The notes under the pieces: generated by a model
Seen by the model: only the letters and a program-made list of their open reading frames with translations
What the model was told of the DNA's origin: nothing
Database searches by the model: none
Made by a program: the position numbers and the translations under genes
Shown here: in pieces, positions 1,966-25,370 of the stretch
Layout: each line of letters starts with the position of its first letter
Position numbering within the stretch: the stretch's first letter is position 1
Origin: Candidatus Omnitrophota bacterium
Lineage (GTDB): Bacteria; Omnitrophota; Gorgyraeia; Gygaellales; Profunditerraquicolaceae
Reading direction: 5' to 3'
DNA: 64,000 nucleotides
NCBI GenBank assembly: GCA_041650835.1
Contig: JBAZKL010000002.1
Location: forward strand, 142,477-206,476

Positions 1966-3366
1966 ATGATCGATCTATTATTAATTAAGCCGCTGAGTAA
2001 ATACAGCCTGCAATACACTCCTTCTTTAGGCATGGGATTTATTGCCGCCCATGTGCAGGCGTGTGGTTTTCAGGTACGGATCGTTGACGCTAATGTAAAA
2101 AAAATAACTCCCGCTGAATTGCCCAAACATTGCTCTTTAAAAGATTTCCGGCTCATCGGCCTCCAGGCGTATGATATGGACCTGCAGGAGGTAAAAGAAT
2201 ACATACAGTCCATTCAAAGTGCCGCTCCCGGAGTCCCGGTCATCGTAGGCGGGCCGGCGCCCTCCTCTAATCCTGAGTTTGTCCTTGAGTTCCTTAAAAC
2301 GGCCGATTTTCTGGCTGTGGGAGAAGGGGAGATCTCTCTCGAGAGGCTTTTAAAGGTGCTTAAACCCGGGGCCGTTAAATATCCTCTTTTTGAACATGTG
2401 CCCAACCTGGCCTGGAGGCAGGATGGCTCGATCCATTTGACGCCCCATGAATATGTCCAGGACCTCGATGCTATCGGGGCCCCCGACTGGGATGCCCTGG
2501 ATCCGGGTTTGTATAAAAACGCGGTGCATGGTTTTTTTTATCGCCGCCTTCCGGCGCTGCCGGTCATGGTATCACGGGGATGCCCGTTCCGTTGTTCGTT
2601 TTGCGGGAGCAGGAATATCACCGGATATAAAGTCCGCAGGCGAAGCCCGGAGTCGGTTGTCAATGAACTGGAGTATTTAAAACATACCTTTGGTTTACGC
2701 GAGTTCCAGGTGATCGACGATAATTTTACTTTTCCTCCGGAAGCGGCATTGGAATTCGCGCAGATGCTGATCGACCGGCGGCTTAACCTGTTATGGACCT
2801 GTCCTAACGGCTTACGGTTAGACACCTTAAATAAGAAATTGCTCCTGGCTATGAAACGTTCGGGATGCTATGAAGTTGCCGTCGGTATAGAATCGGGAGA
2901 CCCCGGGATTTTGAAGGATATGGGTAAGAACCTGTCTTTGGAAACAGTCGTTGAGAAGGTGGATCTTATTCATCAACAAGGGATACAGGTGGTCGGGTTC
3001 GTCATGGTCGGGTATCCGTTAGAAACTGAAAAGACGCTGCGTAAAACGCTCGATTTTCTGCTCTCTCTACCGCTGGTGCGCATTAGCTTGACGAGGTTTA
3101 TCCCTATGCTCGGCACGCCGATAAGCGAACGGCTGCTTGCGAAAGGCGAGATCAGCACCGCAACGATAGACCCGACAAAACAAAATTACAACTCTTTCAC
3201 CTATGTCCCGGCAGCGCTTACCGAAAGCAGGCTTCATTATTGGTACCGTTTTATTTTTTTGCGGTTTTCATTACGGCCGCGCATAATCTTTCATAATATA
3301 AGGAATATAAGATCATTCTCTCATGCAAGAATCATCTTTCAAAAGATCATCGGATTCTTTAAATAA
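1966..3366 (+). CDS. Cobalamin (B12)-binding radical SAM enzyme
   Basis: N-terminal Rossmann-like B12-binding region (LLIKP...GMGFIAAHVQACGFQVRIVD) followed by the radical SAM cluster motif VSRGCPFRCSFCGS. Confidence 0.75.
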   Translation: MIDLLLIKPLSKYSLQYTPSLGMGFIAAHVQACGFQVRIVDANVKKITPAELPKHCSLKDFRLIGLQAYDMDLQEVKEYIQSIQSAAPGVPVIVGGPAPSSNPEFVLEFLKTADFLAVGEGEISLERLLKVLKPGAVKYPLFEHVPNLAWRQDGSIHLTPHEYVQDLDAIGAPDWDALDPGLYKNAVHGFFYRRLPALPVMVSRGCPFRCSFCGSRNITGYKVRRRSPESVVNELEYLKHTFGLREFQVIDDNFTFPPEAALEFAQMLIDRRLNLLWTCPNGLRLDTLNKKLLLAMKRSGCYEVAVGIESGDPGILKDMGKNLSLETVVEKVDLIHQQGIQVVGFVMVGYPLETEKTLRKTLDFLLSLPLVRISLTRFIPMLGTPISERLLAKGEISTATIDPTKQNYNSFTYVPAALTESRLHYWYRFIFLRFSLRPRIIFHNIRNIRSFSHARIIFQKIIGFFK

Positions 3367-3409
3367 TTTGCCCGTTTCCGGCACCCGAAAGGTCAAAAAA
3401 GCCTTTTGT

Positions 3410-4906
3410 ATGGCAGCCGGCAGGGGAATACGCTTTCGGTCCTACAGCAGGGTGATCCCGAAGTCAATGCTTGTTATTGATTCAGAACCATTGATCTCCC
3501 GCAACATTCGGCTGCTTGACGAAGCGTTCGACCTGGACATAGTATACGTTCTTATCAGCCGCAAAAACGCTGTTATCCGTGAGTGCGTCAATAAAATGAC
3601 CCGCTTAAAATGCAAACTGGAGTTTATCGAGATCCCGGAAGAAAATGTTTCTCAGGGCCTCCTCGCCGGGTACGCCGCGATCGCAGCGTACCTTGATCCC
3701 TCGGAAGTCTTTGTTTCTGTTTTGGGAGATGAGTATTATGAAGGGACCGACCACCGGGGATTTGCCGAGTTCATCCAGAGCTGCCCTGATTTCTCGGTTT
3801 GCTGCGCCGTTAAGAGATATGTTTCTCCCGATGAGTATTTTAAAAATTATTCCGTTGATTTTCTCTCGGGATCGCAGGTTAAAGAGGTCCGTGAAAAACC
3901 GAAGAAAATAACCTCCGCGTATTTCGGTTTAGGAATGATCAGTGGAAAACGGGAGCTTCCTGAATTAGCTCAAAAGAAGCTCCAGGAGGGCAGCCCGGTT
4001 AATTTCATCGAGCTTTTAAACAGTATGCCCCAACAGGGCGCGGGGTGCTTACGGGGCTTTGAATTCCGGGGCGGCTACGTCAATATCAATACCCGCAGCG
4101 ATGTTTTTAAATTAAAAAGGTTCCTGAGGGAGAGCCGCTGGAAGACATTTTCTATTGATGTGATCATCCCCGCGTGGAATGAAGCGGAGTCTATCGCTTA
4201 TGTAGTCAAGGATTTTCTCCCGGTGTGCGGGAAGGTGATCGTTATGGACAATGCTTCAACTGACGGGACTGCCGATATCGCCCGCGCGGCAGGGGCGGTC
4301 GTATATTCCGAGAAGCTTGACGGTTATGGGGACGCTATAAAAAAAGGCATGGACCGGTCGCTTGCCGATATTATGTGTATTACGGAGGCCGACGGCACAT
4401 TCCGCGGTGAAGATATCGAAAAATTGCTTATGTATCTAAAGAACGCCGACGCTGTTATCGGCACCCGCACCTATTGGCAGTATGTCGAGTATGGCGCCAA
4501 CATGCCTTTTACGCAGCGTTTCGGGAACATGATCTTCGGTTCGATCATTACGCTGCTTTGGTGGAACCGCCGTTCGAGATTCACCGATGTAGGCTGCACT
4601 TTCCGTTGTTTGTGGAAAGATTCGTATCAAAGGATCGCTCACCGCCTGGTAGGCCGGGGGCCTGAGTTTTCACCGGAAATGATCATTGAATTGCTCAATA
4701 CCTGGCAAAGGGTGATCGAAGTACCGGTGCCGTATCACGCGCGCGTAATGGGAGAATCCAAGTTCTCTCACAGCTTTTTTGCTTCAGCAAAGACCGCCTG
4801 GAAGATGCTGAGGATAATCGTCTATAAACGATGGAAGGAATGGATGTTTACCTTGTTTGCCCTGAAATCGATGTATTTTAACTCCCAGGAAAGGCCGTCC
4901 GCATGA
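3410..4906 (+). CDS. Fusion protein: sugar-phosphate nucleotidyltransferase domain plus family-2 glycosyltransferase (polyprenol-phosphate sugar synthase, DPM1/ArnC-like)
   Basis: N-terminal MAAGRGIRF...P.SML nucleotidyltransferase signature. C-terminal IDVIIPAWNEAESI...VMDNASTDGT...GYGDAIKKG...ITEADGTF GT2 (DPM1-like) motifs. The ATG at 3410 is chosen because the upstream part of the 3323 ORF overlaps the preceding gene. Confidence 0.6.
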   Translation: MAAGRGIRFRSYSRVIPKSMLVIDSEPLISRNIRLLDEAFDLDIVYVLISRKNAVIRECVNKMTRLKCKLEFIEIPEENVSQGLLAGYAAIAAYLDPSEVFVSVLGDEYYEGTDHRGFAEFIQSCPDFSVCCAVKRYVSPDEYFKNYSVDFLSGSQVKEVREKPKKITSAYFGLGMISGKRELPELAQKKLQEGSPVNFIELLNSMPQQGAGCLRGFEFRGGYVNINTRSDVFKLKRFLRESRWKTFSIDVIIPAWNEAESIAYVVKDFLPVCGKVIVMDNASTDGTADIARAAGAVVYSEKLDGYGDAIKKGMDRSLADIMCITEADGTFRGEDIEKLLMYLKNADAVIGTRTYWQYVEYGANMPFTQRFGNMIFGSIITLLWWNRRSRFTDVGCTFRCLWKDSYQRIAHRLVGRGPEFSPEMIIELLNTWQRVIEVPVPYHARVMGESKFSHSFFASAKTAWKMLRIIVYKRWKEWMFTLFALKSMYFNSQERPSA

Positions 4907-6996
4907 TCATCCTGTTTGTGGAAGCGTTAATGGTTATCTTGAGCTCGTGGCTCCTGGCGCGTGAATATTTCGGTTTGCGGCTTTTAAGCGAATCAGTTAT
5001 TGTCTGTTTTATGCTCGGATTTGCCCAGATCGTTCTGGTAGAGCTGGGATGCGGCATTACGGGAAAACTTTATGTATATACTGTTTTTACGTCGCATCTG
5101 GCGGTTTTTGCCTTCGTTGTAATGCTCTATTTGAAAAAGAAAAGAACAACATTGGAAAAACCTGATATCGAGCCATTTTTGAAAAGCAATCTGCTGCTGT
5201 ACGCTTTGAGCGCCTTCGCGGCGTTCTTCCTGGTTAAAATATCCGTTAATTTGCTTAATCCTCCGTTAAGCCCTGACAGCCTGCAATTCCATCTGGCATT
5301 TCCCGCCGCCTGGATCACTCAGGGGAATTTAAACAGCCCGTTCTTTGTTTTCGGCGCAAGCCCTATTGTGAACCCCGGGTCATTGGAAACAGGGTCTCTT
5401 TCTTATTACCCTATTAACGCGCAGTTGTTTTATACTTGGCTCATGCTGCCTCTTCGCAACGCTTTCCTGGCGGATATAGGTGAAGCTCCGTTCTATATTA
5501 TCGGCATAGTAACGATATACGCGATATTGAAGCGCTATGGCATTGATAAGACAAGGGCTTTGTTAACCGGTTTCCTCTGGGCGCTTATCCCTAATATCCT
5601 GAAACAGCTGCGTACCGGCTCATTGATAGACGTTATTTGCGCGGTTTTGCTTTTGATGGTTTTTTATACGCTATTGTTGCTTAAAAAAGAATTGAGCGTT
5701 AAGCATGCTTTGCTCTTCGGGACCGCCCTGGGGCTTTTTATCGGTACCAAGATCATTAATTTTGTCTGGCTTATCGCTTTTATCCCTTTTATGGCTTATG
5801 TTTTGTTCGCTGCCGTAGGCGAAAAAAAACTTGCGTTCGGCCGCGCAGCCGCTATCTCGGCGGCGGCAGCGGGTATGGTGATCATCCTTGGCGGGTACGT
5901 CTATATAAAGAACTTCATTTATACCGGAAATCCTTTGTTTCCCGTCTCCGTGAAGATAGCGGGGAAGGCCCTTTTTAAAGGCTTGCTTGATAACGCCGGA
6001 TATAAGGCCCAAATAGCCCGCGGCGACCAGATAAATATCATGAAAGTCATTTTCCGGGAAGGCTTGGGGCTGCAATTCTTATTATTGATCCTTCCCTGTA
6101 CTGTCGCGCCGCTTATTTTTTTACGGTACCTTAAAACGAGGCTTAAGCCGTTTACTGAATATATCCTTTTGTTCCTTACTCCGTTAATGATGATAGTTTT
6201 ATATTTGGTTTTTATAAATATATCCTGGGTGAGGTATATTTTCCCGTATTTGACGCTGGGATTAGTAGTCGCGGTCATATTCGTAACCGCTTTACCCGGC
6301 GGCCATGCGTATTTGACTTTTGTGTCGTTCGTAGCCATTACCGCGGCATTATTCGAATTAGGAAAAGGCTCTGAGCTGGTTGTGTCTGTCGCGCTGACCA
6401 TCGCGTTAACGGCCGTGTTTATTTTTTACAAAAAACAGATCATTGTATTTTATAAAACCAGGGTTTTCGGTACAGTTTTTTTTGCGGCTGCCGGTACGGG
6501 TGCGCTCATCTTGTTTTTTGGGAACGCCCAATACGACCGGAATGAATTTACCAGGTACCCGCAGACTTTCAGTAAAAAAGAGTCCTGGCAGATCGATACG
6601 GGGAGAAGCTGGAAATGGCTTAACGAGCATTCCGGTGAGGGTGCCGGTATCGCCTACGCCGGCCGTTCGGAGTTTTATCCGCTTTTCGGTGATCACTTGA
6701 AAAACAGGGTAAGCTACATTTCGGTCAATGATAAAGAGATTACCCCGTATAATGATCCTGACGGCTCCTGCCGGCAGAAAAAGGATTACGCGGCATGGCG
6801 CAGAAATCTTCTCTCAAAAAAGGTCGACTATCTGTATACGGTACTTCCCTGCCCTGAAAACAGGGAAGTTGAGGATGCCGGCGCATTTCCGATAGAGGAC
6901 CAGTGGGCTGCCGGCCATCCTGAAGGTTTTCAGCTGGTGTTCAGTAACTCTTTGACGAGGATATATAAAGTAATAATGAACGAACGGTTAAATTGA
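4903..6996 (+). CDS. Large polytopic membrane glycosyltransferase of GT-C fold (ArnT/PMT-like)
   Basis: 697 aa with at least 12 TM segments in the N-terminal 500 aa and a soluble C-terminal domain. It directly follows and overlaps a polyprenol-phosphate-sugar synthase gene, the arrangement seen for ArnC-ArnT and DPM-PMT pairs. Assignment rests on architecture and context. Confidence 0.45.
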   Translation: MIILFVEALMVILSSWLLAREYFGLRLLSESVIVCFMLGFAQIVLVELGCGITGKLYVYTVFTSHLAVFAFVVMLYLKKKRTTLEKPDIEPFLKSNLLLYALSAFAAFFLVKISVNLLNPPLSPDSLQFHLAFPAAWITQGNLNSPFFVFGASPIVNPGSLETGSLSYYPINAQLFYTWLMLPLRNAFLADIGEAPFYIIGIVTIYAILKRYGIDKTRALLTGFLWALIPNILKQLRTGSLIDVICAVLLLMVFYTLLLLKKELSVKHALLFGTALGLFIGTKIINFVWLIAFIPFMAYVLFAAVGEKKLAFGRAAAISAAAAGMVIILGGYVYIKNFIYTGNPLFPVSVKIAGKALFKGLLDNAGYKAQIARGDQINIMKVIFREGLGLQFLLLILPCTVAPLIFLRYLKTRLKPFTEYILLFLTPLMMIVLYLVFINISWVRYIFPYLTLGLVVAVIFVTALPGGHAYLTFVSFVAITAALFELGKGSELVVSVALTIALTAVFIFYKKQIIVFYKTRVFGTVFFAAAGTGALILFFGNAQYDRNEFTRYPQTFSKKESWQIDTGRSWKWLNEHSGEGAGIAYAGRSEFYPLFGDHLKNRVSYISVNDKEITPYNDPDGSCRQKKDYAAWRRNLLSKKVDYLYTVLPCPENREVEDAGAFPIEDQWAAGHPEGFQLVFSNSLTRIYKVIMNERLN

Positions 6997-7047: not shown

Positions 7048-8472
7048 ATGCGCGCAGAAAGAGAAAGACAAGTTATGAAGGTATTCCTTGTTTATCCTCC
7101 GTGCTCTGAGCTTAATTTAAAGGGTTATCCGCTCGGATTAGGTTATCTTGCCGCAGCTATGGGTAAACATTTTGATGTCAGCGTATTTAACTATAACGGC
7201 AGAGAGTTCCAACAGAGTATCCGCTCATTCTTACAGGAGATAAAAGCGGGGAAGCCCGATATCGTCGGGATATCGTTTAATTCCTTTAACCGCTGGGGCG
7301 CGTACCGGCTGATAAACCAGATTAAGCGCCTGGACTCAAAGATCAAGGTCGTTTTAGGCGGCGTTCACCCCTCGACGATGTTCGGGCAGGTGTTCCAATA
7401 CTTTTATAAAAATATCGATTTTATTATCCAGTCTGAGGGTGAAACAACGCTGGTAAAACTCTGTCAAGCTTTAGAAAAATCGGCTGATTTCACCGGCATA
7501 AGCGGTTTGGTTTACAAGACGGCCGACGGAAAGTTCAAGGCAAACCCGGTAACGGATATTGTCAAGAATATTGACGACCTGGCGATGCCGGATTATTCGT
7601 ATGCCGCGCAAGAAATAAGGAGAAAGGGGATCGCGTTCCTGATCTCTTCCCGGGGCTGCCCGGTGAATTGTTCGTTTTGTTCTACGTCATCGTTCTGGGG
7701 CCAGAATGTCCGCATGAATTCTCCTGAACGGATCGGCGCTGAAGTTGAAAGCGCGGTCCAGCGTGGAGCAAAAAAGATATTCTTTCATGATGACACCTTT
7801 AATTTGGGTATAGAGCGCACGATCAAGATCGCGGGCGTCTTAAAGAAATTTAATATCGAATATGCTATCCAGTGCAGGGTCACTCCTGTCAACGAGGAAA
7901 TGATCGCCGCGCTGGCGGATTCCGGATGCAGGCATATCACCTGGGGGGCGGAGAGCCTTTCCGAATCGATCCTTAATAACATCCATAAGAAGATCACCCG
8001 GGAGCAGGTGAAAAAAGCTTTTGACATATGCGCCGGCTTTACCGATAAACTTACAACTTCCGCTTTCTTTTGCGTCGGTACACCGGGGGAATCTGAAAAA
8101 ACGGTCGCTGAAACTCTCTCATACTTGAATAATTTTATCCGTTCAACCCACGGGCCGGGCGCGTCCATGCTTTACATTTTACCCGGGACTAAAATACACG
8201 CTGACCTGGTGAAGGCCCGGAAATTCGATGAGCGGATATGGCTTGAGAGCGGCTCGGTATATTATTATACCGGCGAGCATTCTATGAAGGTGCTCAACCG
8301 CTGGCGTAAAGCGATCAACCGCAGCGGCATCAGGATCCCGTATACTGCCGCTTATTTCTGGGATTCACTCTCTCAGAAAAATGCTCCCGAGGGAAAACCC
8401 GGGAATAATTTGTTTGCCAAAACAGTTAAAAAATTTAAAAGAGCCGTGAATCTATTACTGCGCCGGTATTAA
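7048..8472 (+). CDS. Cobalamin (B12)-binding radical SAM enzyme (second paralog)
   Basis: B12-binding N-terminal region (MKVFLVYPP...GLGYLAAAMGKHFDV) and CxxxCxxC motif SSRGCPVNCSFCS. Confidence 0.75.
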   Translation: MRAERERQVMKVFLVYPPCSELNLKGYPLGLGYLAAAMGKHFDVSVFNYNGREFQQSIRSFLQEIKAGKPDIVGISFNSFNRWGAYRLINQIKRLDSKIKVVLGGVHPSTMFGQVFQYFYKNIDFIIQSEGETTLVKLCQALEKSADFTGISGLVYKTADGKFKANPVTDIVKNIDDLAMPDYSYAAQEIRRKGIAFLISSRGCPVNCSFCSTSSFWGQNVRMNSPERIGAEVESAVQRGAKKIFFHDDTFNLGIERTIKIAGVLKKFNIEYAIQCRVTPVNEEMIAALADSGCRHITWGAESLSESILNNIHKKITREQVKKAFDICAGFTDKLTTSAFFCVGTPGESEKTVAETLSYLNNFIRSTHGPGASMLYILPGTKIHADLVKARKFDERIWLESGSVYYYTGEHSMKVLNRWRKAINRSGIRIPYTAAYFWDSLSQKNAPEGKPGNNLFAKTVKKFKRAVNLLLRRY

Positions 8473-8507: not shown

Positions 8508-9182
8508 ATGCCTGAACTTTCTGTTATCGTCCCGGTGTATAATGAAGCGACCATGATCGAGGGGATCATTAAAAAGATCATCGATATCCCGGTCGATAAA
8601 GAGATCATCGTCGTTGATGACGGCTCCTCAGACGGCACGGGAAAGATCTTAAGGTCGATCTCCTACCCTGGGGTTTTGATCATACATCACGGCACCAATC
8701 GCGGCAAGGGAGCTGCCGTCCTGACCGGTTTGGCTCACGCGCGCGGAGAATATTTGATCGTGCAAGACGCTGATTTCGAATATGATCCTCATGACTATTT
8801 AAAGTTGCTTGAACAGGCAAAGCTCGGGAAAGGCGACCTTATATTAGGGGCGCGTTTCATGAAAGGCTATTTTGGCATGGCTATCCCTAAAATGGGCAAC
8901 CGTTTATTGACCGGCCTCGTCAATCTTTTATTCGGAGTCAAATTAAATGATTGTTTTACCTGCTATAAGCTGATGCGCAGAGTAAGCATACTCGATCTTA
9001 ACCTTGTGTCGGGAAGCTTTGATATTGAGATCGAGATACTTGCTAAGGCCATAAAGAAAAAAATGCATATTTTTGAAGTGCCGATAACATACCGGCCGCG
9101 CACATATTCTCAAGGCAAGAAGATAAGGATACGGGACGGTTTGTGGGCGGTGGCAAGGATATTCAAGTTCCGTTTTAACTAA
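8508..9182 (+). CDS. Family-2 glycosyltransferase, polyprenol-phosphate glycosyltransferase type (DPM1/ArnC/GtrB-like)
   Basis: LSVIVPVYNEA...IIVVDDGSSDGT...NRGKGAAVLTGL..A.GEYLIVQDADFEYDP motifs. Confidence 0.7.
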   Translation: MPELSVIVPVYNEATMIEGIIKKIIDIPVDKEIIVVDDGSSDGTGKILRSISYPGVLIIHHGTNRGKGAAVLTGLAHARGEYLIVQDADFEYDPHDYLKLLEQAKLGKGDLILGARFMKGYFGMAIPKMGNRLLTGLVNLLFGVKLNDCFTCYKLMRRVSILDLNLVSGSFDIEIEILAKAIKKKMHIFEVPITYRPRTYSQGKKIRIRDGLWAVARIFKFRFN

Positions 9183-9195
9183 GAAAGAGGGCGCT

Positions 9196-10440
9196 ATGCT
9201 TAAAATGTTCGAACTTATCATTTATTGGTCGATTATTTTGATCCCGTTTTCCGTGGCAATTTCTACCGGGTTTTCCAATACGCTCCTCGGATTTTTAGCC
9301 TTCGGTTATTGCGGGAAAAAGTTTATGCTCCGTAAGCCCCCTTTTTGGAATACCCCTTTGAGCTGGGTCTATTTTTTGTTTGTGGCGGTAGCCTTGGCCT
9401 CAATAATGAATTCAAGCGCCCTTTTGTATCCGGCGAACCGTCAAGGTATCCTGAAACTTTTAAAATACGGGCTGATTTTCTTGATCTGCGCGGAGGAGAT
9501 ACGCAGCGTTGAGCATATCAAAAGGATCGTTCTGGGGCTTGTGTTCGCGGGGCTGCTGGTAAGCGTAGATGCGTTCTGGCAGCTTCGCGTGGGATGGGAT
9601 TTTGTTCATCATGAAGCCGTGCAATCATGTTTGATCAATTTACCCCGGCCCACCGGACCGTTCCCCAATCCGAATGTCATGGGTATTTTTCTCGGTTTGA
9701 TCGCCCCGCTCCCCCTTGGCCTGGGGCTTGCGTATTATTCGGGAAAAGAAAAGATCTCATGGTTCATCGTTTTCCTGTTCACGGCAATGGGGATTTATCT
9801 GACGCTTTCCCGCGGTTCTGGGCTGGGATTGTTCGTAAGCGCCTTTTTGCTTGCTGTCACATTAAGAAAAAAGGCCCTGGTTGTTTTTTTAGCGGGGATA
9901 TTGCTGGCTTACCCGTTAGTCATGCCCAAGAACATTAAAACCTGGGCTCAAAAGCGTAATTATAATCCACTGGTCTTCTTTTTTAATGAGGACCGTTTGA
10001 GCATGTACATGAATTCGATGAATATGATCAGCCGGCATCCATTTACAGGCGTAGGAATAAACACATATTCTCAGAATTACGGAAAATATAAGACAAAGAA
10101 AGCGGAAGACTACTGCGTTACCCCTGAATCCAGCTACGCTCAAAGTAATTTCTTTCAGATGGCAGGAGAGGTCGGCTTGGTCGGACTGGCGGTTTTCTTT
10201 TTATTCCTGGGTATTTTGTTTAACGGGCTTATACGCGCGTATAAACGATCAAATGATCCGTATTTAAAAGCGCTGTCCGTGTCATTGATCGCCTGCTTTA
10301 CCGCGTTTTTGGTCAATGGATTGACTGAATCAAGCCTGTATTATTCGCGGGTGGTGATCATGTTCTGGTATTTTGTGGGTATCTCGTTAGCTTTACGCAA
10401 ATTCAGGATTCCGGGAACACCACCGGCTCAAGAGGTATAA
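9196..10440 (+). CDS. O-antigen ligase / Wzy_C family membrane protein (second paralog)
   Basis: Polytopic membrane protein with Wzy_C motif LTLSRGSGLGLFVSAFLLAV and a C-terminal periplasmic loop. Confidence 0.6.
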   Translation: MLKMFELIIYWSIILIPFSVAISTGFSNTLLGFLAFGYCGKKFMLRKPPFWNTPLSWVYFLFVAVALASIMNSSALLYPANRQGILKLLKYGLIFLICAEEIRSVEHIKRIVLGLVFAGLLVSVDAFWQLRVGWDFVHHEAVQSCLINLPRPTGPFPNPNVMGIFLGLIAPLPLGLGLAYYSGKEKISWFIVFLFTAMGIYLTLSRGSGLGLFVSAFLLAVTLRKKALVVFLAGILLAYPLVMPKNIKTWAQKRNYNPLVFFFNEDRLSMYMNSMNMISRHPFTGVGINTYSQNYGKYKTKKAEDYCVTPESSYAQSNFFQMAGEVGLVGLAVFFLFLGILFNGLIRAYKRSNDPYLKALSVSLIACFTAFLVNGLTESSLYYSRVVIMFWYFVGISLALRKFRIPGTPPAQEV

Positions 10441-12670: not shown

Positions 12671-13794
12671 ATATCCCATTTTCAGATCTCGGCATTATCC
12701 ATAAAAAATTAAGAATACCTCTCAATAAAGCATTAGAACGCGTGATCGCGAGGGGAGACTTTATTCTCGGAGAAGATGTACGTTTGTTTGAACAGGAATT
12801 CGCATCCGTTTGCAACGCCCGTTACGGTATCGGCACAAGCTCCGGGACTGCCGCCTTATTCCTATCGCTGGTAAGTTTAGGGATTGGAGCGGGAGACGAG
12901 GTCATTGTGCCGGATTTTACCTTTATCGCTACCGCTTTTGCGGTAACCTATACGGGCGCGAAGCCGGTTTTTGCCGATATCGACGATGTTACCTACAATA
13001 TTGATGTTAAAAAGATCAAACATGCCCTTTCCCGAAAAACGAAAGCGATCATCCCCGTGCATTTATACGGGCAGCCTGCCGCGATGCGCCAGATCATGCA
13101 ATTAGCCGGAGAATATGATTTGAAGGTTATTGAGGACGCCGCTCAGGCGCACGGTGCGCTCTGCCAGGTTTCAGGAAAAAAGCTTTTGCCTGTCGGGTCG
13201 ATCGGCGATATCGGATGTTTTAGTTTTTATCCTTCTAAAAACCTCGGGGGATTTGGTGACGGGGGAATGATTGTTACCAATGATGAAGCCTTGTACCGTA
13301 AATTGCTCGTTTTACGGGATTGCGGAAGGATCTCAAAATACGAGCATGCGGTTGTCGGTTATAATTCGCGCTTAGACACGCTTCAAGCTGCGCTCTTGAG
13401 GGAAAAACTCAAATATCTTAACGCCTGGACCCGGTTACGCAAGGCAGCCGCGGAGCGCTATGACGCGATGTTAAAGGATGTGCCGGGAGTTATTATTCCC
13501 CGGGCAGTTGACCAGGCATCCCATGTGTATCACGTCTACGCGATACGGATCAAGAACAGGGATGCTGTAGTAAAGAAGCTCCAGGAGAAAGGTATCGGAG
13601 TGATCGTTCATTACCCGATCCCGCTGCATATGCAGAAAGTGTACGCGTCGTTGGGATACAAAAAAGGGGATTTCCCGGTGGCAGAACAGGTCTCCCGGGA
13701 GATCGTTTCTTTACCGCTGTATCCGTATATGAAACCCTCCCAGATCAAGTACGTTGTGCGCCAGATTCGGGCTGCGGTTGAAACAGCAGGTTAA
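12667..13794 (+). CDS. DegT/DnrJ/EryC1/StrS-family PLP-dependent sugar aminotransferase
   Basis: GTG start overlapping the upstream stop. Motifs GDEVIVPDFTFIATA, HLYGQPA and SFYPSKNLGGFGDGGMIVTND (PLP-lysine). Confidence 0.8.
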   Translation: MNIPFSDLGIIHKKLRIPLNKALERVIARGDFILGEDVRLFEQEFASVCNARYGIGTSSGTAALFLSLVSLGIGAGDEVIVPDFTFIATAFAVTYTGAKPVFADIDDVTYNIDVKKIKHALSRKTKAIIPVHLYGQPAAMRQIMQLAGEYDLKVIEDAAQAHGALCQVSGKKLLPVGSIGDIGCFSFYPSKNLGGFGDGGMIVTNDEALYRKLLVLRDCGRISKYEHAVVGYNSRLDTLQAALLREKLKYLNAWTRLRKAAAERYDAMLKDVPGVIIPRAVDQASHVYHVYAIRIKNRDAVVKKLQEKGIGVIVHYPIPLHMQKVYASLGYKKGDFPVAEQVSREIVSLPLYPYMKPSQIKYVVRQIRAAVETAG

Positions 13795-13930
13795 AGAAAA
13801 GTGATCGGTAAACAGGAAAGCCCGGGACGAGGTAATCCGAGGATACGGCGATCTGGGGACTGGGGCACCGGGGATCCGGCGAACTGATAGTTCGGGAAAA
13901 CGTTAAACTCGGGCTTAGGAATCATAAGTT

Positions 13931-14070
13931 AAGTTTAAAGTCTAAAGGATAAATAACAAAGGAAGATTAAAGGATTAAGGCTAAATTTTAAAATTACCTG
14001 CCTGCCGGCAGGCAGGAACCTTTAAACTTAAGTCTTCCTTTGATATTTAGACTTTAAACTTTAGACTTTT
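13931..14070. repeat. Module-B intergenic palindromic element (copy 2 of 4), with a central perfect 20-bp palindrome cctgcctgccggcaggcagg
   Basis: aagtttaaagtctaaaggataaataacaaaggaag...ctaaattttaaaatt...cttcctttgatatttagactttaaactttagac. It lies in a 334-bp gap between the DegT-type gene and a GT2 gene. Confidence 0.7.
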
Positions 14071-14127
14071 ACAAGAATACTATAGTTAAAAGAAATGAAT
14101 TATAACATTACCAATTAAGGAGGAATA

Positions 14128-14910
14128 ATGCCGGAAAAAATAAAGCTTTCAGTGGTAACGTTAACTAAAAACAGCCAGGAGATAATCGAGGATTGTTTGA
14201 AGAGCGTTGCCGGCTGGGTGGGAGAAATAATCATTGTAGATGATATGAGCACGGACCGTACTTTGGAGATCGTAAGGAAATATACCGATAAAGTTTCTGT
14301 CCGCAAATGGGACAAGGAAGGCCTCCACCGGAACCTGGCTTACGCGAAAGCATCCTATGATTATATATTAAGCCTTGATTCCGATGAGCGGGTGACTCCC
14401 GAACTCAGGGATGAAATAATCGCGATCTTTAAGGCAGGCCCGGAATTTAACGGGTACAATATCCCTCACCGTAATTTTATCGGCAGCTATTGGATACGCC
14501 ATGGAGGCTGGTATCCCAACGCTAAATTGAAGCTGTTCAAGAAATGTGAATTCAAGTACGAAGAGGAAGCGGAATATCATCCGCGCGCTTTCATGGAAGG
14601 AAAAACCTTTACGCTCAAGGGCGATATTATCCATTTTGCCTACCGGGATTTTAAGAACCTTTTTAGCAAATTAAACCATCAGACTGATTTTGAAGCCCGA
14701 AAGTGGCTGCGCGATAAGCGTAAGATGAGCTTCGGCCTGTGTATGGTGAAGATCTTTTCGCGTTTTATGAAATTTTATTTAGGCAAAAAAGGGCACAAAG
14801 ACGGTTTTATCGGATTTATGATGGCGCTCGCGTCTGGGCTCTATCAGATCATGGCTTACGCTAAATATTGGGAGGCTAAACAGAATGCCTTGCCCGCAAA
14901 GGAAAAATAA
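14128..14910 (+). CDS. Family-2 glycosyltransferase (LPS-core WaaE/KdtX-like)
   Basis: KLSVVTLTKNSQEIIEDCL.SV...IIVDDMSTD...LSLDSDERVTPEL. A strong RBS (AGGAGG) lies upstream. Confidence 0.7.
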   Translation: MPEKIKLSVVTLTKNSQEIIEDCLKSVAGWVGEIIIVDDMSTDRTLEIVRKYTDKVSVRKWDKEGLHRNLAYAKASYDYILSLDSDERVTPELRDEIIAIFKAGPEFNGYNIPHRNFIGSYWIRHGGWYPNAKLKLFKKCEFKYEEEAEYHPRAFMEGKTFTLKGDIIHFAYRDFKNLFSKLNHQTDFEARKWLRDKRKMSFGLCMVKIFSRFMKFYLGKKGHKDGFIGFMMALASGLYQIMAYAKYWEAKQNALPAKEK

Positions 14911-19456: not shown

Positions 19457-20485
19457 ATGCCTGAATTACGAAAAGATCCTGTTATCGGACGATGGGTGAT
19501 TATCGCCACTGAACGGGCACGCAAGCCCGACCAGTTTGCCGGCGCGCAAGTCGAAAACCGGGCGGAAAAACCTTGCCCTTTTTGTGAAGGTAAAGAATCG
19601 CAGACTTCCCCGGAAATTTACTCGGTCCGCCCAAAATTATCGGCTCCCAATACTCCGGGATGGGACTTGAGGGTTGTCCCCAGTGTTACGCCCTTCCTGC
19701 GCATTGAAGGCGATCTGGACCGCCGCGGCAAAGGCCTATACGATGTGATGAATGGCGTTGGCGCTCATGAGATCATCGTAGAGACCAACGCGCATATTGC
19801 CGGCATGGCTGACTTAAGCGTCGAACAGATCACTCAAGTGATCTCCTGTTATGTCGACAGGATCGTTGATCTGGAAAAAGATAAACGCTTTAAATACGCG
19901 CTGGTCTTTAAAAATTACGGATGGATCGCCGGAGGGGGGAGCGTAAAACATTCCCGTTCGCAGTTAATAGCTACGCCCGTCAATCCTAAACGCGTCAAGG
20001 AAGAACTCGTCGGCGCGCGGCATTACTATGAACTCCATGAGCGCTGCATTTTCTGCGATTTAATTAAACAGGAGCTTGATTCAAAAGAACGCCTTATTTT
20101 GGACGTTGACGGTTTTATCGCGATCACGCCGTTTGCCTCACGCTTTCCTTTCGAAGTGTGGATACTGCCTAAAAAGCATTCTTGCGATTTTGTGAATCTC
20201 GATATGCCCAGCCGCGGCAATCTGGCGCGGATCATGAAGGCGGTACTTTCAAAATTAAAAAAAGGATTAAATGACCCGGCATTTAACTACGTTTTACATA
20301 CCGCACCTTTTAAGCGGCAGAAGGGGGCGTATTGGAGAAGTATTGAGGATGATTATCACTGGCATATTGAAATTATGCCTTCATTAACTAAGGTTGCCGG
20401 CTTTGAATGGGGAACGGGTTTTTATATCTGTCCTATGCCGCCGGAAACCGCCGCAAAGTTTTTACGGGAAGTAAATGTCAGTTAG
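19457..20485 (+). CDS. GalT-family (galactose-1-phosphate uridylyltransferase / HIT-like) paralog with substituted active-site motif (H-S-R instead of H-P-H)
   Basis: Family blocks: DPVIGRWVIIATERARKP, CPFCEG (zinc CxxC), FKNYGWIAGG and the C-terminal FASRFPFEVWILPKKH. The nucleophile motif reads KHSRSQ where the family has HPHxQ. Confidence 0.7.
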   Translation: MPELRKDPVIGRWVIIATERARKPDQFAGAQVENRAEKPCPFCEGKESQTSPEIYSVRPKLSAPNTPGWDLRVVPSVTPFLRIEGDLDRRGKGLYDVMNGVGAHEIIVETNAHIAGMADLSVEQITQVISCYVDRIVDLEKDKRFKYALVFKNYGWIAGGGSVKHSRSQLIATPVNPKRVKEELVGARHYYELHERCIFCDLIKQELDSKERLILDVDGFIAITPFASRFPFEVWILPKKHSCDFVNLDMPSRGNLARIMKAVLSKLKKGLNDPAFNYVLHTAPFKRQKGAYWRSIEDDYHWHIEIMPSLTKVAGFEWGTGFYICPMPPETAAKFLREVNVS

Positions 20486-20894: not shown

Positions 20895-21914
20895 ATGTCA
20901 GAATTACGCAGAGATACGATAACAGGAAGATGGGTCATTGTTAATACCGACAGCCCCTCAAAACCATCCGATTATGAGCGGGAAGTCCAGGTTTTAAAAG
21001 GCGGCGTCTGCCCTTTTTGTTACGGAAACGAGTCTCAAACTCCTCCTGAGATCGTGGCTATAAGAGAGCCCAGTACTACGCCTAATTCTCCCGGCTGGCA
21101 GGTCCGTGTTGTTTCGAATAAATTCCCCGCCCTGCAAATAGAAGGTGATTTAGACCGCAGAGGATCAGGGATCTATGATATGTCTAACGGGATAGGCGCC
21201 CATGAAGTAGTTATTGAGACCCCGTATCATACCAAGGGGTTTTCCGATCTTTTAGAACTCGAAATAGAAAATGTTATTACGATGTGCATGCAGCGAACGC
21301 TCGATCTTTTAAAGGACAAGCGCTTTAAGTACATTATGATATTTAAGAATGTGGGTGCGGCCGCGGGCGCGTCAATGGAACATCCGCATACGCAGATCGT
21401 AGCGCTTCCTATGGTGCCCAAGAATGTGAAAGAAGAGATATTAGGCGCTCATAAATATTTTGAATACCGCGACCGGTGTTTGTATTGCGATATGCTGCGC
21501 CAGGAAGCACAGGATAAAGAGCGTATTGTGTCGGAAAACAAGCTTTTTATGGCGTTCTGCCCCTTTGTTTCGCGGTTTCCTTTTGAAATATGGATCGTTC
21601 CTAAAAGGCATAACAGTTTCTTTTGCCTGATGTCTTCAGACGAAAAAACGGCACTCGCGGCAATTATGAAAGATACCGTGGGAAAGCTCAAACATGTCTT
21701 CGGGGATCTAGCCTATAATTCTATTATACATTCCTCACCCTTGAATAGCGAGACCAGTATCGATAGTTATCATTGGCATATGGAATTCATGCCGAAATTG
21801 ACCCGCGTGGCGGGTTTCGAATGGGGGACAGGTTTTTATGTGGTACCGACGCCCCCTGAAGTTGCAGCGCAATATTTAAGAGAAGAAGAACCACAGCAAA
21901 CTAAAGTTGGTTAA
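20895..21914 (+). CDS. galT: Galactose-1-phosphate uridylyltransferase-family enzyme (intact His-Pro-His active site)
   Basis: DTITGRWVIVNTD...KP, CPFCYG, FKNVGAAAGASMEHPHTQIVALP (HPH nucleophile motif), FVSRFPFEIWIVPKRH. Confidence 0.75.
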   Translation: MSELRRDTITGRWVIVNTDSPSKPSDYEREVQVLKGGVCPFCYGNESQTPPEIVAIREPSTTPNSPGWQVRVVSNKFPALQIEGDLDRRGSGIYDMSNGIGAHEVVIETPYHTKGFSDLLELEIENVITMCMQRTLDLLKDKRFKYIMIFKNVGAAAGASMEHPHTQIVALPMVPKNVKEEILGAHKYFEYRDRCLYCDMLRQEAQDKERIVSENKLFMAFCPFVSRFPFEIWIVPKRHNSFFCLMSSDEKTALAAIMKDTVGKLKHVFGDLAYNSIIHSSPLNSETSIDSYHWHMEFMPKLTRVAGFEWGTGFYVVPTPPEVAAQYLREEEPQQTKVG

Positions 21915-23099: not shown

Positions 23100-25370
23100 A
23101 TGAATATTGTTTTAGCAGGCACGATTATACTTATAGGTTTAAGCGGGATTGTCGCCCAGATAGTTTTATTGCGCGAGTTATTGACGGCTTTTTACGGCAA
23201 TGAACTTATTATAGGCGTAATTTTCGCGAATTGGATTTTATGGGAATCTCTGGGCGTGATCTTATGCGCGCCGCTTGCCTGCCGGATGAAAAACGCCTTT
23301 AATCTATGTTGCGCTTTTTTACTGGCTTTCGCTTGCGCGTTTCCCGCTTCTGTTTTCATCACGCGCATTTTTAAAACGCTCGCCGGTATCTCCGTCGGTG
23401 AAGCGACAGGGTTTTCTGCCGTATTTCTGGCGACGCTTGCGGTTAATTCAATTACGGGTTTTCTTCACGGCGGATTATTCAGCTGCGCTTTAAAATTAAA
23501 CGCCCAATACCGCTCTCACCCGTCATTGGGCATTGCGAATGTTTACGCGTTGGAAACGGTGGGGACCCTTCTCGGAGGCATACTCTTAAGCTTCTTTTTT
23601 TTAGGACACTGGAACTCTTTTCAAACAGCTCACCTGATCGCTTTTGCTCATCTGAGCGCTGTAGTTATCATATGCGTATATTTCAACCGGGGCCGTTGCC
23701 GGCGTTATCTATTGGGCCTCACCCTGGGGTTGGGAATGCTTTTCTTGTCTGTGCCTGCCGATTTTATTCATAAACGCTCGCTCCATATCCAGTGGAAGGG
23801 CGTCGAAGTCCAGGAGTATAAGAATTCAGTTTACGGGAATATCATGGTAACCAAACGCCTCGGGCAACAAACAGTTTTTTATAATGGGATCCCCGCAATA
23901 GTAACGCCGGTCCCCGATATCGTTTCTCTTGAAGAATTCGCGCATTTCCCGCTGCTCCTGCATGAACAGCCGAAGAATATTTTGGTAATTAACGCTGCGG
24001 CGGGAGGTTTTATCCGCGAGATACTCAAACACGGTCCTGAACGGCTCGATTACCTGGAACTGGACCCGCAAGTCATTGCGATGCTAAAAAAATACCCTAC
24101 GGCTCTCACCGCGGAGGAATTATCAAACCAGCGCGTGCGTATATTCCCTGTTGACGGAAGATTTTTTATACGCACAACCACTACGAAGTATGATATTGTT
24201 TTGATCGGCGTCTCAGGGCCGGGGGATTTAAGTTCCAACCGTTTTTTTACGCTTGAATTCTTTGATCTGCTTAAGAAAACCGTAAATCCGAAAGCTATAA
24301 TCGCTTTTCGTTTACCCGGTTCACAAACATATTTCAGTAAAGAGCTCCTTGATTTGAATTCCTGCATTTATCAAGGGCTCAGAAGCGTTTTTCCCTGCGT
24401 GCGTGTTATTCCCGGTGATTTAACGCTCTATTGCGCTTCAACCGATAATACAATCCTGAGTTTGAACGCAGGGGACCTCATGCGCCGCTTTGAGGAGCGT
24501 TTTATACGCAGTCCGGTGATTTCATTGCCGTACCTAGGTTATCGCTTTAATGAAGCGTCTGAAAGAGATCTTTTGATAGCCCTGCAAAATACGGCTGCCG
24601 GAGAAAACCGGGATATGTTTCCGGTCGCCTTATATTATATGCAATCATTCTGGAATAAACAATTCTCGCCCGGACTGGTGAGGTTTTTCAGTTTATTGAG
24701 AGTATTTAATATGCGTACGGCTGCGGCGGTCATATTCTTGGGGTTAGCTTCAGCTTTATTGATCTTTCGTAAAAAACCGAAGAGCCTTCATGATTTATCC
24801 ATTCTCTATAGTATCGCTACAACAGGCTTTGCCGGAATGCTTTTAAACCTTATCCTGATCTTTACGTTTCAGGTGTATTACGGATTTATCTATCAATGGA
24901 TAGGGATATTAGTGGCAGTTTTTATGGCTGGCGCGGCAATGGGGAGTTTTGTAATGACGCGGGAGAGTGAGAGCCTTGAGAGATCACTCGGTCTTATGCG
25001 TTTTTTTGAAGGGGCTGTCCTTATGTTTTCTTTATTACTGGCATTTATTTTAAAAGAAAATTTTATGAATAGAGGGACCGCATATATGAGTTTTTTAACG
25101 CTTTTCCTGGTTTCAGGAATACTTGTCGGCGCGGAATTTCCCCTCGCCTGCCGGCTATTCCTTAAATCCTCTGAGCAGGCAAGCATGGCTGGCAGCGTGC
25201 TTTATTTTGTCGATCTGGCCGGAGGGTGGGCAGCAGGCTTACTGGGAGGTATTTTCTTTCTGCCGATTTTAGGAGTGTTTAAGAGCTGTGTGCTTTTGGC
25301 ACTCTTGAAGTTAAGCAGCCTGGTACTGCTTTTTCTATCGCGAACAAAAAATAACTATTCTACCTCGTAA
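23100..25370 (+). CDS. Fused polytopic membrane protein with a central spermidine-synthase-like (aminopropyltransferase fold) domain
   Basis: N- and C-terminal multi-TM regions. The central soluble domain has SpeE-like blocks (ILVINAAAGGFIREILKH, YLELDPQVI, DIVLIGVSGPGD) but lacks the acidic residues of the canonical GGGDGG and D-S-S-D motifs. Confidence 0.55.
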   Translation: MNIVLAGTIILIGLSGIVAQIVLLRELLTAFYGNELIIGVIFANWILWESLGVILCAPLACRMKNAFNLCCAFLLAFACAFPASVFITRIFKTLAGISVGEATGFSAVFLATLAVNSITGFLHGGLFSCALKLNAQYRSHPSLGIANVYALETVGTLLGGILLSFFFLGHWNSFQTAHLIAFAHLSAVVIICVYFNRGRCRRYLLGLTLGLGMLFLSVPADFIHKRSLHIQWKGVEVQEYKNSVYGNIMVTKRLGQQTVFYNGIPAIVTPVPDIVSLEEFAHFPLLLHEQPKNILVINAAAGGFIREILKHGPERLDYLELDPQVIAMLKKYPTALTAEELSNQRVRIFPVDGRFFIRTTTTKYDIVLIGVSGPGDLSSNRFFTLEFFDLLKKTVNPKAIIAFRLPGSQTYFSKELLDLNSCIYQGLRSVFPCVRVIPGDLTLYCASTDNTILSLNAGDLMRRFEERFIRSPVISLPYLGYRFNEASERDLLIALQNTAAGENRDMFPVALYYMQSFWNKQFSPGLVRFFSLLRVFNMRTAAAVIFLGLASALLIFRKKPKSLHDLSILYSIATTGFAGMLLNLILIFTFQVYYGFIYQWIGILVAVFMAGAAMGSFVMTRESESLERSLGLMRFFEGAVLMFSLLLAFILKENFMNRGTAYMSFLTLFLVSGILVGAEFPLACRLFLKSSEQASMAGSVLYFVDLAGGWAAGLLGGIFFLPILGVFKSCVLLALLKLSSLVLLFLSRTKNNYSTS

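Follow-up and report, generated by a model that had tools for sequence, protein, structure and literature searches.

Several described glycosylation systems combine a glycosyltransferase of family 2 (GT2) that synthesises a polyprenyl-phosphate-linked sugar with a polytopic membrane glycosyltransferase of the GT-C fold. ArnC-ArnT (GT2 and GT83) pairs an undecaprenyl-phosphate L-Ara4FN transferase with a lipid A aminoarabinosyltransferase, and Dpm1-PMT (GT2 and GT39) pairs a dolichol-phosphate-mannose synthase (DPMS) with a protein O-mannosyltransferase. A third group is formed by the three-component systems of the GtrA/GtrB/Gtr* type, which include CsbB/YfhO, GacI/GacL and the GT136 pentofuranose systems. 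Three-component periplasmic glycosylation has been reviewed and extended (PMC11127046), and in the same paper phosphatase::PPPRS (ORF15), a fusion enzyme of donor synthesis, sets a precedent for joining consecutive steps of a donor pathway. Here we analyse a 64,000-nucleotide stretch of a Candidatus Omnitrophota genome (assembly GCA_041650835.1, contig JBAZKL010000002.1; "the window" below), in which a gene fusing a sugar-1-phosphate nucleotidyltransferase to a DPM1/ArnC-like GT2 (3368..4906, + strand, with the reading frame open from an ATG at 3323) is followed by a gene for a 697-aa GT-C membrane protein (4903..6996, +). We consider it likely that the fusion and the membrane protein form a donor-synthesis and transfer pair of the ArnC-ArnT or GtrB-Gtr type. 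This type of system is well known and the conceptual gain is incremental; what differs here is the nucleotidyltransferase::GT2 architecture, an unmodelled GT-C clade with three extra transmembrane helices and a C-terminal domain of its own, and a locus with no linked flippase in the window.

The product of 4903..6996 is annotated as "hypothetical protein" in the public record. It has more than 120 full-length homologues (39–100% identity) and is therefore a real gene rather than a chance open reading frame (ORF). The AlphaFold2 (AF2) model of this protein, built from a 40-sequence alignment, has a pLDDT of 87.6 and a pTM of 0.90, and when it was compared with the PDB by Foldseek, ranks 1–34 were all occupied by GT-C enzymes. 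The best matches were STT3 (6ezn_F, E = 6e-6; both yeast and human STT3) and ArnT (5f15, E = 4e-5, target-normalised template-modelling score 0.50), and further GT-C matches included DPY19, AglB, PglB, Pmt4, AftA, EmbA/B/C, PimE and ALG3. The protein thus models as a GT-C enzyme and not as a transporter or polymerase, in agreement with an earlier reading of this DNA made from the sequence alone (the sequence-only reading).

That reading had counted at least 12 transmembrane helices. The polytopic character stands, while the figure was too low: we count about 16 transmembrane helices and a soluble C-terminal domain. Judged from the AF2 helices and the positive-inside rule, three extra N-terminal helices precede a core of 13. 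A count by transmembrane parity alone was inconsistent, and the topology was settled by assigning the helices at 172–192 to loop 1 as juxtamembrane elements and by the positive-inside rule. The GT-C membrane domain comprises residues 1–555 (4903..6567, +), as delimited by the AF2 model, Foldseek and conservation, and is followed by an alpha/beta soluble domain of about 140 aa (residues 556–697; 6568..6996, +) that is predicted to be periplasmic. As in GT-C enzymes, a long loop with a conserved acidic residue, D125, follows the first core helix. This loop 1 (residues 119–194) contains juxtamembrane helices, is predicted to be periplasmic and also carries H130, W137 and D191, and four further residues (D243, K283, E386 and R444) sit at predicted periplasmic helix ends. 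In an alignment of the GT-C family at 21–59% identity (A3), conservation of at least 90% extends down to homologues of 21–25% identity for D125, H130, W137, D243, K283, R444, W632, E665 and W668, all of which are on the predicted periplasmic side. The C-terminal domain is itself highly conserved, with W632 invariant and A584, G587, L594, G596, E665, W668 and F676 conserved in at least 90% of the sequences. We infer from the model that loop 1, the conserved residues and the C-terminal domain all face the periplasm. By analogy, D125, just past the first core helix, would correspond in position to the catalytic Asp found in GT-C_A enzymes and is a candidate catalytic base, and the C-terminal domain (residues 556–697) is probably the acceptor-binding domain, comparable to those of ArnT, PglB and PMT.

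The sequence relationships of the 697-aa protein point to the same superfamily by a longer route. Direct tests did not place the window pair in GT83, GT39 or GT66, and the window GT-C has no match to Pfam PMT or PMT_2 even at E ≤ 10. Searches with two profiles (A1 and A3) against Pfam, NCBIfam and PDB sequences gave nothing meaningful for the protein; the stray matches were halorhodopsin (E = 0.004, attributable to transmembrane bias) and a weak one to ALG9 (E = 0.0025). Two of 40 close homologues match PMT_2 under its threshold (best E = 7e-5). An exhaustive profile search collected 5,839 cluster representatives (50% identity) at E ≤ 1e-3, and among the distant relatives P0344, P0282, P0269 and P0311, found with profile A1 at E = 1e-52 to 1e-95, the Pfam PMT_2 cutoff is exceeded, and in one case that of PMT; two distant relatives carry the NCBI name "glycosyltransferase family 39 protein". 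Because only distant homologues pass the Pfam cutoff, the relation of the window GT-C to PMT_2 is transitive and not a direct membership. By profile comparison, the window protein is a diverged branch of a PMT_2/GT39-GT83-like GT-C assemblage that current models overlook. As a separate observation, the weak ALG9 match joins the "HKEERFLFP" region of ALG9 (GT22, another GT-C structural class) with the invariant R444-Y-x-F-P segment of the window protein (6208-6243, residues ~436–447; profile E = 0.0025). This likeness may reflect a shared lipid-phosphate-binding motif or chance.

The gene upstream is an ORF of 527 aa when counted from its first ATG (3323..4906, +), and the residue numbers of the fusion given here start from that codon. 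The proposed fusion is real: two Pfam domains score above their gathering thresholds within this one ORF, NTP_transferase at residues 27–205 (32.6 bits, cutoff 21.2) and Glycos_transf_2 at residues 280–395 (60.6 bits, cutoff 23.3). The same two-domain architecture recurs in 396 matches, including proteins from Desulfatibacillum, Cyanobacteriota and Acidobacteriota, so that the gene is not a chance ORF. The AF2 model of the fusion has a pLDDT of 87.1 and a pTM of 0.83. A search of a library of papers found no characterised fusion of a nucleotidyltransferase with a GT2 that makes polyprenyl-phosphate sugars, and by sequence the fusion falls in no named orthologue group, since all its NCBIfam equivalog scores are far under the cutoffs.

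The start codon of the fusion probably has to be moved. The sequence-only reading placed it at 3410 (an ATG, M30), which would delete the first beta-strand (residues 26–30, KAFCM) ahead of the G-x-G-x-R loop. Residues 1–20 are disordered in the AF2 model, several homologues begin about 12 residues ahead of the "MAAGRG" segment, matching a TTG at 3368, and this TTG lies one base past the stop of the upstream radical SAM gene, which a start at ATG 3323 would overlap. From the homologues and the model, the TTG at 3368 is likely the start, favoured over the alternative at 3323 because it better matches the homologue N-termini, and 3410 is likely too far downstream. At the other end of the gene, the reported stop/start overlap is exact: the ATG of the GT-C gene occupies 4903-4905 and the TGA of the fusion 4904-4906, forming an ATGA (4903..4906, +) that is a translational coupling signal.

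The nucleotidyltransferase domain covers residues ~26–262 (3398..4108, +). Its motifs are G33-R-G35-I-R37...K47, G135-D136-E137, E191-K192-P193 and N254/N256. In an alignment of 40 fusion homologues with 36–73% identity to the window protein (A2), the triphosphate loop and its lysine (G33, G35, R37 and K47), D136/E137, E191/K192 and N254/N256 are invariant. The nucleotide-binding loop that the sequence-only reading required is therefore present throughout the alignment, together with the GDE and EKP motifs. The N-terminal half of the A2 profile matches RmlA (3hl3, E = 5e-24) and GalU (3juj, E = 7e-22) among PDB sequences, and Foldseek of the fusion model matches this domain to RmlA, UGPase, GMPPB and ST0452. 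We take N254/N256 to be at the position of the second metal ligand of GlmU, which is a lead and not a test. The segment corresponding to the base-reading stretch of RmlA, located before the invariant G112-L113, varies across the fusion family, and because of this lack of conservation no nucleotide or sugar can be assigned from the pocket residues.

The GT2 domain (residues ~278–483 plus a C-terminal amphipathic helix at 485–522; 4154..4903, +) contains the motifs D309-N-x-S-x-D314, G334-Y-G-D337, E355-A-D357, F-T-D422-V-G-C425 and R474-x-x-G477-x-S479-K480. The first three are invariant in A2, as are D422-x-G424-C425 and R474, G477, S479 and K480; E355-A-D357 is the equivalent of the DxD motif. 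Comparisons of the C-terminal half of the A2 profile with the PDB gave Pyrococcus DPMS (5mlz, E = 3e-18, chain residues 19–235; 24% identity to the fusion across 250 columns) and ArnC (9hwj, 9bhc and 8vxh, residues 8–214), and Foldseek of the model likewise recovered ArnC (9asc) and DPMS (5mlz). The alignments with DPMS and ArnC, and no others, run through the entire catalytic domain and take in the interface-helix region as well as the R-x-x-G-x-S-K segment, which substantiates the DPM1/ArnC-like assignment. The amphipathic helix at 485–522, which is long and forms the C-terminus, and a second, conserved helix with the sequence "F-G-x-I-I-T-L-L-W-W-N-R" presumably attach the protein to the membrane.

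The relationship between the two genes was further assessed by a neighbourhood census of 31 loci (one genome per species) together with the window and L003, in which the immediate same-strand neighbours of the GT-C genes were scored. All 31 loci are Omnitrophota metagenome-assembled genomes (MAGs) by family content, and some of the record titles name other taxa. A GT2 of the type that synthesises polyprenyl-phosphate sugars is immediately adjacent to 25 of 35 GT-C genes of the family. Among orthologue-type genes with flanking sequence the proportion is 18 of 28, and the adjacent GT2 takes three forms. The nucleotidyltransferase fusion itself is present in 3 of the 28 (the window, L010 and L037), with the same overlap arrangement in L010, where the stop-to-stop frames of the fusion and the GT-C overlap. 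In three other loci (L012, L016 and L018) the neighbour is a 314–324-aa GT2 with two C-terminal transmembrane helices and, as is typical of GtrB and ArnC, a "...GEYIG..." tail, and 12 orthologue GT-C genes adjoin a soluble DPM1-like GT2 of 234–270 aa. Each of the 7 paralogue-type GT-C genes for which downstream sequence exists is directly followed by a soluble DPM1-like GT2. The conserved partner of the GT-C is thus the GT2 and not the nucleotidyltransferase. Because the neighbour is exchanged among three non-orthologous forms of one enzyme class, the GT-C would depend on a polyprenyl-phosphate-sugar donor; we regard this replacement as the strongest computational argument for such a donor. 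In an unrelated lineage, the gene after a fusion homologue of 39% identity (P0237) encodes an 860-aa protein of the same GT-C superfamily (E = 3e-21).

Three side observations come from the same census. Orthologues of 39–80% identity in L009, L014, L019, L027, L031 and L032 are in records titled "uncultured Planctomycetales" or "Bacteroidales" bacterium with Omnitrophota-like gene content, and these titles are likely taxonomic mislabels of the MAG records. Many Omnitrophota have a second, paralogous GT-C (L003 15004-17070, L012 14190-16262, and L013, L026, L033, L038 and L039), always followed by its own GT2 of ~235 aa; its identity is about 29% in L038 and L039, and the window has a single GT-C copy. 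In L011, L016, L021, L026, L031, L035 and L036, a 437–450-aa RfbH/DegT-like pyridoxal-phosphate enzyme, encoded ~2–5 kb ahead of a GT-C located at ~10000, is followed by a 237-aa GT2 and then the GT-C, with one or two genes intervening before the GT-C in some loci. By comparison with arnB-arnC-arnT, this order suggests that the sugar transferred in the sister lineages is an amino or deoxy sugar.

The GT-C fold, the motifs of both fusion domains and the adjacency in 25 of 35 cases support the donor-synthase-plus-GT-C interpretation, under which the pathway would be as follows. The N-terminal domain of the fusion would combine a nucleoside triphosphate (NTP) with a sugar-1-phosphate to give a nucleoside-diphosphate sugar (NDP-sugar). 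Its channelling to the second domain, proposed by the sequence-only reading, is a hypothesis. The GT2 domain, held at the cytoplasmic face of the membrane by its amphipathic helices, would move the sugar to polyprenyl (undecaprenyl) monophosphate, and the lipid-linked sugar would be flipped to the periplasmic face. The 697-aa GT-C would then use it as donor for the modification of an envelope glycan, with D125 as candidate base and the C-terminal domain binding the acceptor. The acceptor is most likely the core or O-chain of lipopolysaccharide (LPS), because the pair is flanked by heptosyltransferases, a GmhB-like phosphatase and O-antigen-ligase-like genes.

Several observations weigh against this interpretation. 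Searched as a single sequence, the window GT-C matches nothing in Pfam, NCBIfam or the PDB sequences; the Foldseek template-modelling scores are modest (0.30–0.50), and the best structural matches are oligosaccharyltransferases, which use oligosaccharides linked to undecaprenyl or dolichyl diphosphate. The fusion misses the cutoff of every NCBIfam equivalog for polyprenyl-phosphate-sugar synthases (AglJ 92 against 325, DPhHxTase 62.7 against 375, PpgS 60.5 against 370 and ArnC 24.4 against 529). By hydrophobicity and in the AF2 model it has no transmembrane helix, and its GT2 domain therefore differs from ArnC and GtrB, which have a C-terminal anchor of two transmembrane helices, and from Pyrococcus DPMS, which has four; DPM1-type enzymes without transmembrane helices exist, and the missing anchor is compatible with them. 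In the census, no GT2 adjoins 10 of the 28 orthologue GT-C genes, and in Desulfatibacillum the fusion adjoins membrane proteins with no detectable similarity to the window GT-C. Finally, a hydrophobicity scan of all ORFs of at least 80 aa in the 64 kb, with Pfam searches of the candidates, revealed no flippase of the GtrA, SMR, MATE or Wzx type; the membrane proteins in the scan were the two Wzy_C proteins, the GT-C, a spermidine-synthase membrane protein, SecG, OppB/C and ExbB.

Alternative scenarios differ in which part of the pathway they change. The same donor mechanism could serve a protein acceptor instead of LPS, in a PMT-like O-glycosylation of Ser/Thr-rich envelope proteins. The nearest sequence family, PMT_2/GT39, is that of the protein O-mannosyltransferases, and Pmt4 and DPY19 are among the fold matches; against this, PMT_2 also takes in ArnT-like lipid and glycan transferases, LPS-type genes dominate the island (GT9 heptosyltransferases, the GmhB-like gene and Wzy_C), and the protein has a small alpha/beta C-terminal domain and no MIR or TPR domain. 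We therefore find a protein acceptor improbable. Slightly less probable is a role of the fusion's GT2 domain as a conventional glycosyltransferase of the cytoplasm, with either a soluble acceptor (as in GpgS) or a growing glycan on undecaprenyl diphosphate (Und-PP) as its substrate; adjacency to the GT-C would then reflect a shared pathway only. AglJ-like GT2s are hard to tell from other GT2s by sequence, the scores far below all synthase cutoffs and the missing anchor would fit such an enzyme, and the N-terminal half of the GT2 also matches GpgS and MpgS. The GpgS-type (glucosyl-3-phosphoglycerate synthase) matches, however, span only the first ~80 residues of the domain and end at about profile position 335, whereas DPMS and ArnC align throughout and are the enzymes recovered by Foldseek; the stop/start overlap with the GT-C, and the GtrB/ArnC-type GT2s with two transmembrane helices that replace the fusion in L012, L016 and L018, also speak against it.

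Less probable still is a GT-C resembling an oligosaccharyltransferase or ligase that transfers a preassembled oligosaccharide en bloc from Und-PP to a protein or lipid, with the fusion supplying only an NDP-sugar or a cytoplasmic glycosylation step. The Foldseek ranking of STT3, AglB and PglB favours it, and among the products of the island are an initiating Glycos_transf_4 enzyme and a PglF-like dehydratase, which serve to build glycans on Und-PP. Yet WWDYG, WWD and W-x-D are absent from all 697 aa, which removes an STT3-type (GT66) enzyme from consideration; ArnT, which uses a polyprenyl-phosphate monosaccharide, comes close to these enzymes in score and leads in target-normalised template-modelling score; the sequence relatives in PMT_2/GT39 use donors of the same kind; the conserved immediate neighbour is a GT2 of the matching synthase type in three non-orthologous forms; and en bloc transfer is a role already filled by the two ligase-like Wzy_C genes. 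A transporter, an O-antigen polymerase or a ligase encoded at 4903-6996 is ruled out by the fold search, where transporters appear only at E > 0.4 and probability < 0.1.

Within the donor-synthesis and transfer interpretation, the two B12-binding radical S-adenosylmethionine (SAM) enzymes on either side of the pair deserve mention (both + strand, by Pfam B12-binding and Radical_SAM in the first and by Pfam in the second). The gene for the first, rSAM1 (1966..3366), lies directly upstream of the fusion, and its orthologues occur only in the fusion-bearing loci and always in that position (window 1966-3366, L010 6983-8461 and L037 2964-4418). The gene for the second, rSAM2, is at 7048..8472, with the public gene call starting at 7075. 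In 14 loci, counting the window, an rSAM2 orthologue (phmmer 520–936 bits) lies on the downstream side of the orthologue-type GT-C. In many loci, the window not among them, a 238-aa class-I SAM methyltransferase stands between the GT-C and rSAM2 (for example L012 12081-12797, with rSAM2 at 12815-14212). We speculate that rSAM1 and rSAM2 may modify the sugar or the product. A bolder version, which we hold to be doubtful, is that the fusion and rSAM1 make and activate an unusual sugar (for example a C-methylated one) that is otherwise not nucleotide-activated and that a single polypeptide loads directly onto undecaprenyl phosphate. In this scenario the 697-aa protein would found a new CAZy GT-C family, with a close clade largely specific to Omnitrophota, and install the sugar on LPS, and its three extra N-terminal transmembrane helices or a neighbouring Wzy_C protein might replace the flippase.

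The pair is part of a co-directional array of envelope-glycan genes that takes up the first ~16.5 kb of the window. The array opens with the C-terminus of the PglF-like dehydratase and a Wzy_C gene (635-1957), followed by rSAM1, the fusion, the GT-C and rSAM2. Next is a stand-alone DPM1-like GT2 of 224 aa with no transmembrane helix (8508..9182, +; Pfam 120 bits), which the sequence-only reading had correctly recognised; its best NCBIfam similarities are to AglJ, PpgS and dolichyl-phosphate hexose transferase, all under the model cutoffs. It adjoins a second Wzy_C gene (9196-10440; O-antigen-ligase-like, IctB-like), and these two genes are kept as an adjacent pair in most Omnitrophota loci examined. 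A link between a GT2 of the polyprenyl-phosphate-monosaccharide-synthase type and a WaaL/Wzy-like protein is unexpected, and the two may be a second donor/transferase pair. Two GT9 heptosyltransferase-like genes follow, the second of which (GT9b) exceeds the heptosyltransferase II cutoff (142.7 > 134.6 bits), and then a DegT/PseC-like aminotransferase, a GT2, a GmhB-like HAD phosphatase (160.7 bits, under the cutoff of 178) and, last in the array, an MGDG-synthase-like glycosyltransferase, after which come PriA, Fmt and housekeeping genes.

Just outside the island, tandem GalT-like paralogues (UDP-glucose--hexose-1-phosphate uridylyltransferase, DUF4921/DUF4931; 19457-20485 and 20895-21914) could interconvert sugar-1-phosphates and NDP-sugars. 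Farther on, 23100-25370 encodes a 756-aa polytopic membrane protein with a spermidine-synthase domain at its centre. A similar 868-aa protein (L006 2988-5594) shares a cluster with the fusion homologue in Desulfatibacillum alkenivorans, and two unannotated 14-helix membrane proteins of ~710 aa are located between them. We considered these two proteins as members of the window GT-C family, but the hhalign probability was 0.2% and the broad hidden Markov model gave no match; they either lie outside the family or are too diverged to tell.

The analysis proposes a concrete function for a large family of "hypothetical" membrane proteins, with ~5,800 cluster representatives at 50% identity, in which the clade of the window gene is covered by neither a Pfam nor an NCBIfam model, and for a widespread uncharacterised two-domain enzyme of Omnitrophota, Desulfobacterota, Cyanobacteriota and Acidobacteriota. 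Should the fusion indeed convert a sugar-1-phosphate, NTP and undecaprenyl phosphate to an undecaprenyl-phosphate sugar, glycoengineering could make use of it as a compact generator of the donor in one protein. The pair would also give a first handle on the modification of envelope glycans in Omnitrophota, a phylum that offers biochemistry no cultured representatives to work with.

Compared with the described systems, the window locus is a mosaic of shared and distinct features. The nucleotidyltransferase domain has the G-x-G-x-R...K loop, the GD(E) and EKP motifs and the fold matches of RmlA/GalU/GlmU-type enzymes, and differs from them in its fusion to a GT2 and in its unconserved base-reading segment. 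Like human DPM1, the window GT2 is DPM1-like and lacks transmembrane helices, and distant relatives of the window GT-C pass Pfam PMT_2 or PMT and are named GT39; unlike the GT-C of the Dpm1-PMT system, the window protein fails PMT and PMT_2, has no MIR domain, and in its loop 1 shows no recognised D-E pair, only the single conserved D125 followed by His130. With the three-component systems it shares the combination of a polyprenyl-phosphate-sugar synthase and a GT-C that would act after export, whereas the window has no flippase gene, the partner fused to its synthase is a nucleotidyltransferase, and its GT-C belongs to a family distinct from Gtr*, YfhO and GT136. ArnC-ArnT also has a GT2 gene adjoining a GT-C with a 13-helix core and a periplasmic C-terminal domain, both of its proteins are among the structural matches, the context is LPS, and the DegT-like/GT2/GT-C order of sister loci recalls arnB-arnC-arnT. 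In contrast to that system, the window GT-C has no sequence match to ArnT or GT83 models and carries three extra N-terminal transmembrane helices, the window locus contains no equivalents of ArnA, ArnD or ArnE/F, and its GT2 has, in place of the two transmembrane helices of ArnC, an N-terminal nucleotidyltransferase.

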